From: an uncultured Candidatus Saccharibacteria bacterium
Lineage (GTDB): Bacteria; Patescibacteriota; Minisyncoccia; UBA10092
DNA length: 57,838 bases
Reading direction: 5' to 3'
Assembly (NCBI GenBank): GCA_964495505.1
Contig: CAZBVM010000001.1
Coordinates: 3,783 to 61,620, forward strand
Shown here: piece by piece, positions 4,076 to 48,782 of the stretch
Position numbering within the stretch: the first letter of the stretch is position 1
Layout: every line of letters begins with the position of its first letter
Program-made: the position numbers and the translations under genes
The notes under the pieces: generated by a model
Told to the model about the DNA's origin: nothing
Seen by the model: only the letters and a program-made list of their open reading frames with translations
Databases searched by the model: none

Positions 4076-4750
4076 ATGGACAGCAATAAAAATAAAAATA
4101 AAAAAATTTGGCTGTCGCATTCGGGGATTGAAGGAATGTATCGTTGCCCGCGCTGTTTTTGGCTGCAATATAATAAAGGATTACGCCAGCCGGAAGGGAT
4201 TGTTTCGCGTTTGGCGAACCGATTTGACGTTATTTTAAAAAGATATTTTGATTTATACCGACAAACCGGCGAGCTGCCGCCAATGATTGAGGGAAAAGTT
4301 GAAGGAAAATTGGAAAATCCTTTCCAAGAAAAATATTTTTGGGATTACGGTGAAAAATATGGCCTAACCGGGCGGCTTGACGATTGTTTAATTCGCGAAG
4401 ATGACACTTATACGCCGGTAGATCACAAAACCGCCAGTTCCGATCCTCGTGAAAAAGATATTTTAGAGGCATATCAGCACCAGTTGAATTTTTATGCGTT
4501 TCTTCTTGAAAAAAATGGCAAAAAAACTTCGGGCTTCGGCCACTTGATTTATTATTATCCGGAACATGGAGAAGAGCTTCATAAAGGAGTGCCGATCCAT
4601 GTTCACATTCAAACTTTAAAGACGAATCCAAAACAGGCGGAACAAGAGTTTTTAAAAGCCATAAAAATTTTAGAAGAGAAAATACCAAAGCCATCTTCCG
4701 ATTGTTCTTTTTGCTTCTGGCATGAGCAGTTGAAGGAATTAAAGTTATGA
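4076..4750 (+). CDS. PD-(D/E)XK nuclease, Cas4/RecB-like, with CxxC...CxxC cysteines
   Basis: It has GRLDD...VDHKT (D...DxK), a QHQLNFY QxxxY motif, N-terminal CPRC and C-terminal CSFC. Confidence 0.7.
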   Translation: MDSNKNKNKKIWLSHSGIEGMYRCPRCFWLQYNKGLRQPEGIVSRLANRFDVILKRYFDLYRQTGELPPMIEGKVEGKLENPFQEKYFWDYGEKYGLTGRLDDCLIREDDTYTPVDHKTASSDPREKDILEAYQHQLNFYAFLLEKNGKKTSGFGHLIYYYPEHGEELHKGVPIHVHIQTLKTNPKQAEQEFLKAIKILEEKIPKPSSDCSFCFWHEQLKELKL

Positions 4751-45117: not shown

Positions 45118-46983
45118 TTATTCTATTTTATAAACAAAAATTGAATAACCGATTTTTGCAACTGGCTTATATTGATCAAGCCAGGTGTAAGCGCGCTCGT
45201 TGTAAGAGCAGGGAACTTTGTCGCCCTTGCAAGCGCCTTGCAAAATTGTAGCCGAAACCGCCAGCCATCCCTTTTGTGGTATTTCGCGGTTGAAAGATTC
45301 TATTTTTACATTTTTAATATAATATTCCGCCGGAGCGCCGGAAAAATAATCCATCTTAACTTCTTTTATATTATTTTTCTCTATAAATTCTGCCAGGCGC
45401 AAAATATCCTGCCCCCAGTCAAGGTTGGAATCCACCACCCATTTATAACCCTTATCAGGCCCACCCGCGATCTCGTTAAAGTAAGCAAGAAATGATGGAT
45501 AAATAAAAACCACCGATAAAACCGCCCATGTAAAAAGAATCATGATTACAAAACACCTTTTTATTTTTCCCCAATATAAAACAAGCAGCTGCCAAAACCC
45601 GGTATAGTTAGGGATTCTTTCGGTTACGCCTCCTTTGATCCAATTTGCAATTTGCCGCGCCGCCAATGCATAGATAAATGGAATCGTCGGCAGTATATGC
45701 CGCACGCCAATATTTAGCCGCGAGTTTATTGAAAAAGACCAGTAAATTAAAATAATAATTATCATTCCCATTTCCGCGGAATTGTTTTTTATTAAATCAA
45801 GAGCGTCGGATAACCAATTTTTAATCGCTCGATTACGACAATGGTTAATGCATTTTTTAATCACCAGAAAAAAAGCAAAAAATAAGAGAATAATATAAGC
45901 TAACGGTTCTTTAATCAGATAAACAACAAGAAAGTACGTCATTGAACCGGCCGCTGAAACTTCACCAAGATAATAAGTAGTATTGCCACCACTAGAACGC
46001 TGGATAACCATTAAAAACCCCAGTAAATATTGTCCCCATGTCCTTAAATACGACACGCCAGAAAGCCAGATGTTAAAATCAACGAGCGGCTTAAACCCGA
46101 AAGTGCTTAAAATAAATGCCGTATCAATTTGCTGCTTTTCTGGTGGGTAGTTCCAGATGTGATAGCCGTAAACCAGTCCGACAACCACGTAAGCGATAAT
46201 TAAAGAAAAAATAAATCCGCTGATGTATTTTCTAAACCAGAACCATTTTTTTTGATTTTGTGTCCCTTCGGGACATCTCCCGCAGGGAGAAACTATGGCA
46301 TAAATTAAAATAATTAATCCAAAAATTGGCAGCAAAAGAAAGGTAGAAAATTTAGTTAAAAGTGCTAAACCAAGAACAATGCCAAAAACCCATAAATTTC
46401 TTTTTGTCGGCGTTTTAAGCCAATGATACAAATAATAAAAACTGATAAAAAACGCGGCCGCGGCGGCAACGTCGGTTGTTACAAGCCGTGTGTGGGCTAA
46501 AACGGTTGGTGAGAAGGAATAAAAAATTAAAGCAATAATGCCGACTAAATTGCCCCATAATTCCTTGGTAAACCGCCAAATATAAAATCCTAAAAGAATA
46601 CCGATTAAAATAATAGGAATTCTTCCATAGCGCATAATATTTTGCGCGTCATTTCCGGAGTAGTAAAGTAGGTCATTGCCAAATTGAACATCGGTCTGCC
46701 AGCTCGGCGTTCTACTATTGATGTCCGACATCAATAGTGTGTTCCAGCCGGGACTTTGATAGGGGAATTTGATATCTAAAAGTAAAAGCGGCAAGGCGGC
46801 TAAATCTTTTACCAGGGGCGGATGTTCCGGATTAAGACGCATATCTTTTTGCGTCAGGTAGGAATATCCGGCCGGAAGATGGATTCTTTCATCGTAATTT
46901 GCGGTGTCATTCCACATGCTGGTTGTGGCAAGTACGCCAAAAACCGCTAAAAGAAAAAAAACAATAATATTGACAATTTTCAT
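45118..46983 (-). CDS. GT39/PMT-ArnT-like phospholipid-carrier-dependent glycosyltransferase
   Basis: Polytopic protein with a DE motif (ANYDERIH) in the first loop. I chose the start at ATG 46983 because the track start at 47025 overlaps tRNA-Lys. Confidence 0.75.
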   Translation of the reverse strand: MKIVNIIVFFLLAVFGVLATTSMWNDTANYDERIHLPAGYSYLTQKDMRLNPEHPPLVKDLAALPLLLLDIKFPYQSPGWNTLLMSDINSRTPSWQTDVQFGNDLLYYSGNDAQNIMRYGRIPIILIGILLGFYIWRFTKELWGNLVGIIALIFYSFSPTVLAHTRLVTTDVAAAAAFFISFYYLYHWLKTPTKRNLWVFGIVLGLALLTKFSTFLLLPIFGLIILIYAIVSPCGRCPEGTQNQKKWFWFRKYISGFIFSLIIAYVVVGLVYGYHIWNYPPEKQQIDTAFILSTFGFKPLVDFNIWLSGVSYLRTWGQYLLGFLMVIQRSSGGNTTYYLGEVSAAGSMTYFLVVYLIKEPLAYIILLFFAFFLVIKKCINHCRNRAIKNWLSDALDLIKNNSAEMGMIIIILIYWSFSINSRLNIGVRHILPTIPFIYALAARQIANWIKGGVTERIPNYTGFWQLLVLYWGKIKRCFVIMILFTWAVLSVVFIYPSFLAYFNEIAGGPDKGYKWVVDSNLDWGQDILRLAEFIEKNNIKEVKMDYFSGAPAEYYIKNVKIESFNREIPQKGWLAVSATILQGACKGDKVPCSYNERAYTWLDQYKPVAKIGYSIFVYKIE

Positions 46984-47010
46984 AAAGTATGATAAATTAA
47001 TTAGTGAGGT

Positions 47011-47085
47011 GCCGTCGTGACGCAATGGTAGCGTAGCGGCCTTTTAAGCCGAGAGTTGGGGGTTCAAGTCCCTCCGGCGGCACCA
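47011..47085 (+). tRNA. tRNA-Lys (anticodon UUU), CCA encoded
   Basis: Hand-folded cloverleaf. Acceptor stem gccgtcg/cggcggc. D arm acgc-aatggta-gcgt. Anticodon loop cTTTTaa. T arm ggggg-ttcaagt-ccctc. Confidence 0.85.
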
Positions 47086-47102: not shown

Positions 47103-47179
47103 AGGCCCGTAGCTCAGTGGCAGAGCAGGCGCGCCTTATAAGCGCCAGGTCGGAGGTTCAAGTCCTCCCGGGCCTACCA
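47103..47179 (+). tRNA. tRNA with UAU anticodon context (Ile-like) and 2 extra nt in the anticodon arm, CCA encoded
   Basis: Acceptor stem aggcccg/cgggcct. D arm gctc-agtggca-gagc. T arm ggagg-ttcaagt-cctcc. The anticodon region is ggcgc-GC-cuUAUaa-gcgcc, which gives either a 9-nt loop or a bulged stem. Confidence 0.7.
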
Positions 47180-47213: not shown

Positions 47214-47242
47214 CCCCCGCAAACGCGGGGGAATTTCTTTTT
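47214..47242 (+). terminator. Rho-independent terminator after the tRNA pair
   Basis: cccccgc-aaac-gcggggg followed by aatttcttttt. Confidence 0.65.
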
Positions 47243-48782
47243 ATGGAACTATTAAAACGGGAGTGTTTAAATAAATAAATTCAACTTTTCCGTTCGAAAA
47301 CTTTTTGTTTAAATCGCGAGGTAATTCTAAATCAAAATAAATCGGAGCGATAACCGTGCCATTTTTTCCTAAGTTTATTTTATCAAATTTGTCAAATTTC
47401 AAATAATTTATTTCTGATTTTTTATAAGTAAGAAAAAATACTGTCTGCGCGGAAATTGGCAAACCATTCTCCGTTGGCTGATCATTCGAAGGCCAAATTG
47501 CGTATTTTTTAACATCTTGAGGCAGTCGGTTAAGATAGTCGGCAATTTTAACCTGATTTTGCGAGAAGGCCTCGACAGTGTGAATGTCTGAAGCCCATTT
47601 AACAAAATACTTGTTAAATTCCGAAAAACCTATAAATAGTAAGAAAATAATCAGCAATATAAAAACTTTTTTATATCTTTGTACCTTTCCCCAAATCCAA
47701 ACTAATCCAATTCCAGCAAAAACCATTGCTGCGGGCATTGCTCCCAAAGCCCGCAGGGCGTGGGGATTGCCCTCGGCTGCTAAAATATTTGGTAAAAGAA
47801 AAATGCCCAGCCACATCAGCATAAATTTTTCACTAAATCTTAAACGCTTAATACTAATACCTAATCCTATAAGAAATAAGATTCCTACCGGCCAAAATAA
47901 TTGCGGTGAATTGGCAAAATTATGCCGCCAATTAAAATCTCCGATGATATTAAACATCCCAAGTGTTGAAACGATGCTCAATATGGCAGCTTTAAACGGA
48001 TTTTCCGCCGACCAAATTGCCACTTGCCCGCTTCGGCCAAAGAAATCGCCGGGATTATTAAGAAAATAAAGCCCGATTGGCAAAGCAACGATAAAAGCTA
48101 CAATTGCAAAAATCACAAATCCCAACCAAAGATTTTTCACGCGGCGCCTTATAAGATAAGGAATAAAAAACATGGCGACTAAAACTGGCGCGAATCTATA
48201 TGAAATATAGGTGTAAAATCCTAAACCGAATAAAATCCCCGCAATGATAAAATCCGGTGTCCGACACCAAAATCCTCCGGTGTCGGACACCGGTTTTTTG
48301 TCTAGTCCTCGCCAAAGAAAATAAAAAGACCAAATTAAAAATGGCAGCATTAAACCGGCTCTGAAACCGATACGGCTGAAATTCACTGCCCAAAAACTAA
48401 TGGCTATAAAAAAGCTGGAAGCCAAAGCAACGTGCGGGTTAAAAAGTAATTTGGTTAAAAAATAAAGGCCTAAAACGGCCAAAACCCCTGCTGCGGCAGG
48501 AAAAACTCTTAAAACCCATGGCTCTGTACCGAAAAGTTTAATTGCCAAAACGTCGAGCCAAACAATCATTCCTTCGCGGCCGTTGTTATTAGAATAAAAA
48601 ACTCTGAAATTGCCTGATTCTAGAGAGGTAAGAGCATCGGCTCCATTCATCGCTTCATCCTGATAAAGTCCCGACGGAACTGAACCAAACTGCCAAAATC
48701 TAAAAAAAATCGCAATGGCGATAATTAAAATTAAAGAAAGCAGATACTTGTGTTTATAAATAAACTTTGTCATGCCTGCCAT
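47241..48782 (-). CDS. Second GT39/ArnT-like glycosyltransferase
   Basis: Polytopic protein with GLYQDEAMNG in the first loop. Contains an in-frame GC palindrome at 48254-48293. Confidence 0.75.
   Translation of the reverse strand: MAGMTKFIYKHKYLLSLILIIAIAIFFRFWQFGSVPSGLYQDEAMNGADALTSLESGNFRVFYSNNNGREGMIVWLDVLAIKLFGTEPWVLRVFPAAAGVLAVLGLYFLTKLLFNPHVALASSFFIAISFWAVNFSRIGFRAGLMLPFLIWSFYFLWRGLDKKPVSDTGGFWCRTPDFIIAGILFGLGFYTYISYRFAPVLVAMFFIPYLIRRRVKNLWLGFVIFAIVAFIVALPIGLYFLNNPGDFFGRSGQVAIWSAENPFKAAILSIVSTLGMFNIIGDFNWRHNFANSPQLFWPVGILFLIGLGISIKRLRFSEKFMLMWLGIFLLPNILAAEGNPHALRALGAMPAAMVFAGIGLVWIWGKVQRYKKVFILLIIFLLFIGFSEFNKYFVKWASDIHTVEAFSQNQVKIADYLNRLPQDVKKYAIWPSNDQPTENGLPISAQTVFFLTYKKSEINYLKFDKFDKINLGKNGTVIAPIYFDLELPRDLNKKFSNGKVEFIYLNTPVLIVP
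48254..48293. repeat. Perfect 15-bp-arm GC-rich palindrome inside a CDS
   Basis: ccggtgtccgacacc-aaaatcctcc-ggtgtcggacaccgg. The minus-strand frame encodes ...KPVSDTGGFWCRTPD... Confidence 0.95.

Follow-up and report, generated by a model that had tools for sequence, protein, structure and literature searches.

A tRNA-Ile(UAU) gene with a two-nucleotide expansion of the anticodon arm: probably a private GC insertion in a redundant gene of a TilS-less Patescibacteria family

The window, i.e., the whole analyzed stretch of 57,838 nucleotides, encodes at 47103-47179 a tRNA of the tRNA-Ile(UAU) type, here named X, whose anticodon arm is two bases longer than normal. With moderate confidence, we regard X as a redundant tRNA-Ile(UAU) that is derived from an Ile2-like gene and has suffered a private GC slippage insertion, rather than as an evolved decoding device. 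The window is part of contig C1 of genome G000, which comprises 642 kb in 49 contigs, has a GC content of 40%, and is 94.8% complete. Genomes, contigs, and loci are denoted by G, C, and L, respectively, followed by our running numbers.

ARAGORN called the 77-nt gene on the forward strand as tRNA-Ile(tat) with the anticodon at position 35, and the Rfam tRNA model (RF00005) scored it with 61.1 bits (E 7.8e-11, model positions 1-71), where the gathering threshold is 29 bits. Its sequence is AGGCCCG-TA-GCTC-AGTGGCA-GAGC-A-GGCGC-GCCTTATAA-GCGCC-AGGTC-GGAGG-TTCAAGT-CCTCC-CGGGCCT-A-CCA. Coordinates and letters agree exactly with those of the first-pass annotation, which had proposed a UAU-anticodon tRNA with a 2-nt-expanded anticodon arm and otherwise canonical acceptor, D, and T arms. 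This description is borne out: Watson-Crick pairing is complete in the 7-bp acceptor, 4-bp D, and 5-bp T stems, CCA is encoded, the cloverleaf folds with a minimum free energy (MFE) of -35.9 kcal/mol (z -3.2, ViennaRNA), and an Infernal alignment places a 2-nt insert 'gc' within the 5' strand of the anticodon stem. The gene and its canonical parts are the following:

47103..47179, forward strand: tRNA X, tRNA-Ile(UAU)-type, 77 nt (ARAGORN, Rfam 61.1 bits, cloverleaf MFE)
47103-47109 / 47169-47175, forward strand: acceptor stem of X
47112-47126, forward strand: D arm of X
47128-47132 / 47142-47146, forward strand: anticodon stem of X
47152-47168, forward strand: T arm of X
47176 and 47177-47179, forward strand: A73 and CCA of X

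X is preceded by a tRNA-Lys(UUU) gene, and the cluster is flanked by two glycosyltransferase genes on the opposite strand:

45118..47025, reverse strand: GT39/PMT_2-type glycosyltransferase on one side of the tRNA cluster (78-84% amino acid identity to the flanking gene of G002 and L152)
46970..46998, forward strand: sigma-70-like promoter TTGACA-17-TAAATT with extended -10 TG (consensus scan, 10/12 matches)
47011..47085, forward strand: tRNA-Lys(UUU), 75 nt, CCA encoded, upstream partner of X (ARAGORN; Rfam 64.8 bits)
47214..47241, forward strand: intrinsic-terminator-like hairpin CCCCCGC-AAAC-GCGGGGG with T tract, 3' of the tRNA pair
47241..48782, reverse strand: second GT39/PMT_2-type glycosyltransferase, other flank

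The putative promoter is situated 12 nt 5' of tRNA-Lys and, judged by its match to the consensus, probably drives the Lys-Ile(UAU) pair. The terminator-like hairpin is also kept in L152. The GT39 ORF at 45118-47025 (reverse strand) is listed with a TTG start that overlaps tRNA-Lys; translation probably starts at the ATG near 46983 instead, and given this start the -35 box of the tRNA promoter (46970-46975) lies inside the first codons of the opposite-strand GT39 gene.

The anticodon arm of X reads GGCGC-GCCUUAUAA-GCGCC. Two structures had been offered for it, a 5-bp stem with a 9-nt loop or a 7-nt loop on a GCGC/GCGC stem, and the computed folds clearly favor the first over the second. In the MFE fold, the 5-bp stem GGCGC/GCGCC encloses all nine bases, the computed probability of the closing pair of this loop being 0.996, whereas the best register with a 7-nt loop has 4 bp only and is 4.6 kcal/mol worse. 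X in its predicted fold thus departs from the canonical combination of a 5-bp stem and a 7-nt loop. The loop core CUUAUAA, already recognized in the first-pass annotation together with U33 and A37, is located at 47135-47141, with the anticodon TAT at 47137-47139, U33 at 47136, and A37 at 47140. The two features that set this arm apart are:

47133..47141, forward strand: predicted 9-nt anticodon loop GCCTTATAA (MFE fold)
47133..47134, forward strand: extra GC dinucleotide, not distinguishable from the other GC units of the GCGCGC run at 47129-47134 (MAFFT alignment)

An alternative register that would read UUA, making X a stop-codon reader with the 7-nt loop CCUUAUA and a G-A closing pair, has C at 33 and U at 37; it was rejected because the UAU register has the universal U33 as well as A37.

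The expansion is a singleton in all comparisons. In a MAFFT alignment of 24 related CAU, UAU, and GAU tRNAs, the two insert columns are filled by the X row only, and the 23 other sequences lack them. Along this line, the spacing from D stem to loop is the canonical 6 nt in 198 of the 201 distinct tRNAs of this genome and its relatives, and 8 nt in X only. An exact 27-nt search of the genome contig collection gave no match. The degenerate arm pattern GGCGCNNCTTATAAGCGCC, which allows any two inserted bases, matched 42 times in the metagenome, 41 times in the genome, and 3 times in the viral collection, never within a tRNA; by our own arithmetic, these counts fit chance, as a pattern with 17 fixed bases should occur about 70 times in 596 Gb. 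As a separate case of an unusual loop size, L022 (G051:C6, c1577-1652) harbors beside a tRNA(CAU) a tRNA-like gene with an apparent 6-nt anticodon loop (GTTGG-TTAGCA-CCAAT), reported by ARAGORN as tRNA-???(ag).

When one GC is removed, the arm becomes GGCGC-CTTATAA-GCGCC, the cloverleaf is canonical at -35.0 kcal/mol, and a single base-pair difference separates the arm from that of the orthologue in L179. Since removal of a single GC restores a perfect arm, GC-dinucleotide slippage represents the simplest origin of the expansion. The same restoration would also be expected if the canonical arm were the true one and the GC had been added by the assembler, or by a mixed-strain consensus, in the GCGCGC run. 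The insert indeed lies within a dinucleotide repeat, is a singleton, and stems from a 49-contig draft with 100 N. However, outside the insert the locus is colinear with that of relatives and displays no other anomaly, and short-read assembly does not commonly add two bases to a 3-unit GC run. We therefore consider an assembly or consensus artefact distinctly unlikely, and less likely than a private lesion in a redundant gene.

Orthologous loci were located via the second GT39 gene (47241..48782). The GT39-tRNAs-GT39 synteny is common to the same-genus genomes G002 and G003, to G006, and to L152, an ENA contig that represents the closest public relative and whose GT39 genes are 77-84% identical. 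No exact match to the flanking GT39 protein was found in other assemblies, the nearest homologue being 77% identical, and public records of the flanking-protein homologues are assigned to Candidatus Azambacteria, Parcubacteria, or Patescibacteria. The cluster is composed of Leu(UAA)-Lys(UUU)-X in G002 and G003 and of X alone in G006. Orthologues of X in G002, G003, G006, and G046 have the anticodon CAU and the arm CCGG-CTCATAA-CCGG. L152 contains a 5'-truncated Leu, Lys, and X(UAU) with the normal arm GACGA-CTTATAA-TCGTC, while in L179 an X(UAU) with the equally normal arm GTCGC-CTTATAA-GCGAC is fused to a tRNA-Lys 5' half (4250-4300); neither of these two nearest orthologues shares the expansion. 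L180 retains Lys only, and no tRNA was found between the two GT39 genes in L153, L154, and L178. Orthologues of tRNA-Lys adjoin X in G002, G003, and L152 and are solitary in L180. Because the cluster has been lost piecemeal in relatives, it is dispensable there. The truncated tRNA-Leu(UAA) of L152 (1890-1990, minus strand) is overlapped by a called 50-aa ORF.

X of the window is the positional orthologue of the Ile2-like tRNA(CAU) that sister genomes carry between these two GT39 genes, and its anticodon was switched from CAU to UAU in one sublineage, composed of this genome, L152, and L179. In the alignment, the acceptor stem GGGCCCG/CGGGCCY and the T arm are common to the X orthologues; compared with L152, the anticodon stem of the window gene reveals two compensatory double changes, A28-U42 to G-C and A31-U39 to C-G. 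We read X as an Ile2-type gene because it is the third CAU tRNA of G002, besides the initiator and the Asp-linked elongator Met, because its orthologues resemble in the alignment the tRNA(CAU) of G025, a TilS-positive genome of the same class, and because it carries C4-G69, U12-A23, C29-G41, and A73, which we take to be the E. coli Ile identity set. We also rejected a translocation, in which the end of contig C38 would hold the original and the Lys-X pair would be its copy, because the tRNA-Leu(UAA) of C38 is a different gene, the assembly holds no second Lys or X fragment, and the synteny in G002, G003, and G006 shows this to be the ancestral locus. In a check for phage origin, the acceptor/T-arm pattern matched 5 viral tRNAs only, all of them unrelated.

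The abundance of AUA codons, pointed out earlier for the window, holds for the genome: in a crude set of 479 ORFs, AUA amounts to 21.3 per 1000 codons and 24% of the Ile codons. Profile searches identified no TilS over the cut-off, neither in 21 relatives with TIGR02432 nor in the 12 family genomes with PF01171, and neither profile revealed a tilS gene over its cut-off in G000 (94.8% complete) and its 11 family relatives. A weak TilS-profile match within the window is MnmA and not TilS. The search is sensitive, since it was positive in 72 of 151 Patescibacteria genomes, including G025 from the same class. Canonical tRNA-Ile(UAU) genes are present in the relatives G001, G002, G003, G005, G026, G029, and G038. 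The genomically encoded UAU anticodon, which the first-pass annotation had called a minority solution that dispenses with TilS, applies to the whole family. In the literature library searched, no paper dealt with TilS in the Candidate Phyla Radiation or in Patescibacteria. The IleRS of G000 has a type-2 C-terminus (DUF5915), the type that Bifidobacterium and Neorickettsia, which lack TilS, are reported to have (PMC3575796). It is encoded at C3:33673-37236 (reverse strand, locus L216) by a 1188-aa open frame, in which the class I catalytic domain is interrupted midway by an inserted histidine-phosphatase domain (His_Phos_1, 99.9 bits).

Descent from a CAU tRNA allows for the alternative that X is no Ile acceptor and is still charged with Met, such that Met would be inserted at AUA. 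MetRS identity reportedly depends on C34 of CAU, according to Muramatsu in 1988, but X has U at this position, and its body carries the Ile identity set. Furthermore, a UAU tRNA is present in every fully examined relative, so that the family's IleRS must already be able to accept such tRNAs. Consistent with Met charging are the CAU anticodons of the sister orthologues in TilS-less genomes and the finding that unmodified tRNA-Ile(CAU) is charged by MetRS (PMC13752280). Taken together, we find a Met-charged X hardly credible. For the CAU orthologues themselves, the same finding suggests by analogy that an Ile2-type CAU tRNA in TilS-less cells would be Met-charged and would read AUG harmlessly (PMC13752280). 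Such Ile2-like tRNA(CAU) genes occur in the TilS-less G002:C12 (L004/L039), G003:C19 (L027), and G006:C6 (L005) besides initiator, elongator Met, and tRNA-Ile(UAU), and they probably work as a second tRNA-Met, although they may carry an unknown C34 modification. G002 (0.8 Mb) encodes 53 distinct tRNAs (loci L157-L174), many of which are diverged duplicates (3 Leu-UAA, 2 His, 2 Cys, 2 Lys-UUU, 2 Val-GAC, 2 Val-UAC, and 2 Ser-CGA); this suggests that accessory tRNA sets were acquired.

As an AUA decoder, X is probably redundant. A canonical tRNA-Ile(UAU) with the arm TGCGA-CTTATAA-TCGCA is located at G000:C10:447-519 and, with 76.4 bits, is the best-scoring tRNA of the genome. The ancestral tRNA-Ile(UAU) beside tRNA-Val on C10 carries a 54-nt insert, and the redundancy of X hence rests on one canonical copy. 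The G000 assembly contains 29 tRNAs, compared to 40-54 in congeners, among them no Met or Ile(GAU) tRNA; at least 10 tRNAs are missing and the inventory is incomplete. The first-pass annotation had named a pseudogene score together with a normal AUA decoder elsewhere as grounds for refutation. The normal decoder, an intact isoacceptor, does exist on C10, but the covariance model does not score X as a pseudogene: its stems are not degraded and its score is not low.

The surroundings of the canonical gene are peculiar in their own right. After ftsH, the minus strand of C10:1-620 (L156) carries a 5' tRNA fragment, the canonical tRNA-Ile(UAU), a GIY-YIG-like ORF, a second tRNA(UAU), and tRNA-Val(GAC). 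The second tRNA(UAU), with the loop CTTATAC, is the orthologue of the Ile-UAU that adjoins tRNA-Val(GAC) in G002 and G003. It shares with the 5' fragment the same 52-54-nt GC-rich double-hairpin insert directly after 'GTAG' (tRNA positions 7-10), an arrangement that looks like a mobile insert or a recombination scar inside tRNA genes. A related GC-hairpin insert with 84% identity to that of C10 follows 'GTAG' in L214 (G005:C40, 1500-1620), within degenerate tRNA-like sequence that is flanked by tRNA-Leu(GAG) and tRNA-Phe.

Our favored scenario for the emergence of X would run as follows. The ancestor was presumably an Ile2-like tRNA(CAU) beside tRNA-Lys(UUU) between two GT39 genes in a TilS-less, Azambacteria-like family. 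Replacement of C34 by U34 in one sublineage would have created a direct AUA reader and a lineage-specific second tRNA-Ile(UAU). In this genome only, one GC unit would have been added to the (GC)n run at the 5' anticodon stem/loop junction, probably by replication slippage, with a 5-bp stem and a 9-nt loop as the predicted outcome and the extra bases 5' of C32 (positions 31.5/31.6). We infer that the lesion was tolerated through redundancy with the canonical tRNA-Ile(UAU) of C10. If X is transcribed and charged, its UAU would probably pair with AUA in the zero frame, as in tRNA-SufJ with a single insertion at 31.5; decoding would likely be less efficient, with some risk of +1 slippage. The closest relative available for dating the insertion shares only 77-84% identity in the flanking proteins, and the insertion is either recent or tolerated.

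One set of observations speaks against this scenario. All four stems of X are perfectly paired and include compensatory changes, the promoter-like and terminator-like signals are intact, and apart from the insert X shows no decay. This implies that X was under selection until recently and that it may still work. It could then be a tolerated AUA decoder that is kept by AUA demand (AUA represents 2.1% of codons), either with a 9-nt loop that keeps the 33-38 geometry or with the 4-bp/7-nt register on the ribosome. The good Rfam score fits a working gene, and A73, C4-G69, U12-A23, C29-G41, A35, U36, A37, and A38 are all present in X; these follow the identity elements of E. coli-type IleRS reportedly defined by Nureki et al. 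in 1994, whose rules we applied to X. Moreover, A-site binding of the SufJ anticodon stem-loop, which carries the insertion at 31.5, is normal, and its decoding stays in the zero frame (PMC4238358). However, the stem of tRNA-SufJ is distorted and +1 shifts are promoted (PMC4238358), and such frameshifting would be costly at about 21 AUA per 1000 codons. Likewise, the expansion is conserved in no relative, and the 7-nt register comes at a cost of 4.6 kcal/mol. We regard a tolerated working decoder as unlikely. The claim that X is a working natural tRNA-Ile with a nine-membered loop, which reads AUA as a triplet or engages in +1 or extended-codon reading at AUAN, appears very doubtful to us.

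At the far end of this range stands the proposal that X evolved as an expanded-loop tRNA, i.e., as a reader of the four- or five-base codons AUAA or AUAAG or as a programmed +1 frameshifter at AUA. Eight- and nine-membered loops can reportedly cause +1 frameshifting or extended-codon reading, as in the work of Tuohy et al. from 1992 and Anderson et al. from 2002 and in SufJ. A crude and noisy genome-wide scan of 84 adjacent +1 ORF pairs (at least 100 codons) gave no signal of AUA-linked +1 frameshift sites: among the 812 codons of the overlap windows, ATA occurs 4 times, less often than in the genome on average, and ATAA does not occur. Of the features typical of Suf tRNAs, X has a loop of more than 7 nt in the predicted fold, but the loop is not conserved in L152 and L179, where the orthologues are normal. 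In addition, the extra bases are placed two positions 5' of U33 and do not adjoin the anticodon. Since the weak scan of +1 pairs remained without signal and the expansion is not conserved, a programmed frameshift role of X finds no support, and we consider an evolved frameshifter or extended-codon reader highly improbable. The first-pass annotation had treated the expansion as a potentially meaningful decoding feature; with normal arms in L152 and L179, no other such tRNA in the collections, and no AUA-linked +1 candidates, this view is not supported.

As a decoding oddity, X matters little unless a 9-nt-loop tRNA proves to be real and used. Of wider relevance is that a whole Patescibacteria family without TilS reads AUA, i.e., 2% of its codons, via tRNA-Ile(UAU), while some of its members keep an Ile2-like tRNA(CAU). 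The conversion of CAU to UAU is directly visible at one orthologous locus and parallels in nature the 'life without TilS' suppressors that were obtained in the laboratory (PMC3919564). Accessory tRNA clusters in reduced genomes of this kind turn over quickly, and odd tRNAs of draft genomes should therefore be compared with their orthologues before they are called recoding devices.

Nine-membered anticodon loops are known from laboratory suppressors. The tRNA-Arg2 mutants reportedly described by Tuohy et al. in 1992 and the tRNAs that Anderson, Magliery and Schultz are said to have engineered for five-base codons in 2002 have a 9-nt loop on a 5-bp stem, as is predicted for X. In contrast to X, a natural singleton with extra bases distal to the anticodon, they are laboratory mutants or library members with extended anticodons. 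With tRNA-SufJ, a tRNA-Thr with a C31.5 insertion (PMC4238358), X shares the place of the insertion between 31 and 32, and its residues 33-38 are canonical in sequence. SufJ has one extra base and an 8-nt loop and is a laboratory-selected suppressor of ACCN sites, whereas X has two extra bases and neither a selection history, nor matching sites, nor conservation. The yeast mitochondrial tRNA-Thr1 with its 8-nt loop is, like X, a natural tRNA with an enlarged loop, and it still reads triplets (PMC4267643). Budding yeasts have kept its loop, which is tied to a codon reassignment (PMC4267643), while that of X is not conserved.

With the tRNA-Ile2(CAU)/TilS lysidine system, X is linked through its orthologues in G002, G003, and G006, which are Ile2-like CAU tRNAs (C4-G69, U12-A23, C29-G41, A73) and resemble the tRNA(CAU) of G025. 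The X family differs from this system by the lack of TilS, and X itself has the anticodon UAU, such that no lysidine is needed. The closest likeness in decoding is given by the tRNA-Ile(UAU) of the TilS-less Mycoplasma mobile, Bifidobacterium, and Neorickettsia (PMC3575796). X is alike in the encoded UAU, the loop sequence CUUAUAA, the lack of a detected tilS, and the frequent use of AUA, and G000 shares with Bifidobacterium and Neorickettsia the type-2 IleRS C-terminus. X differs from these tRNAs by its two extra nucleotides 5' of C32 with a predicted 9-nt loop, and by being a second copy that was derived in place from an Ile2-like CAU gene.
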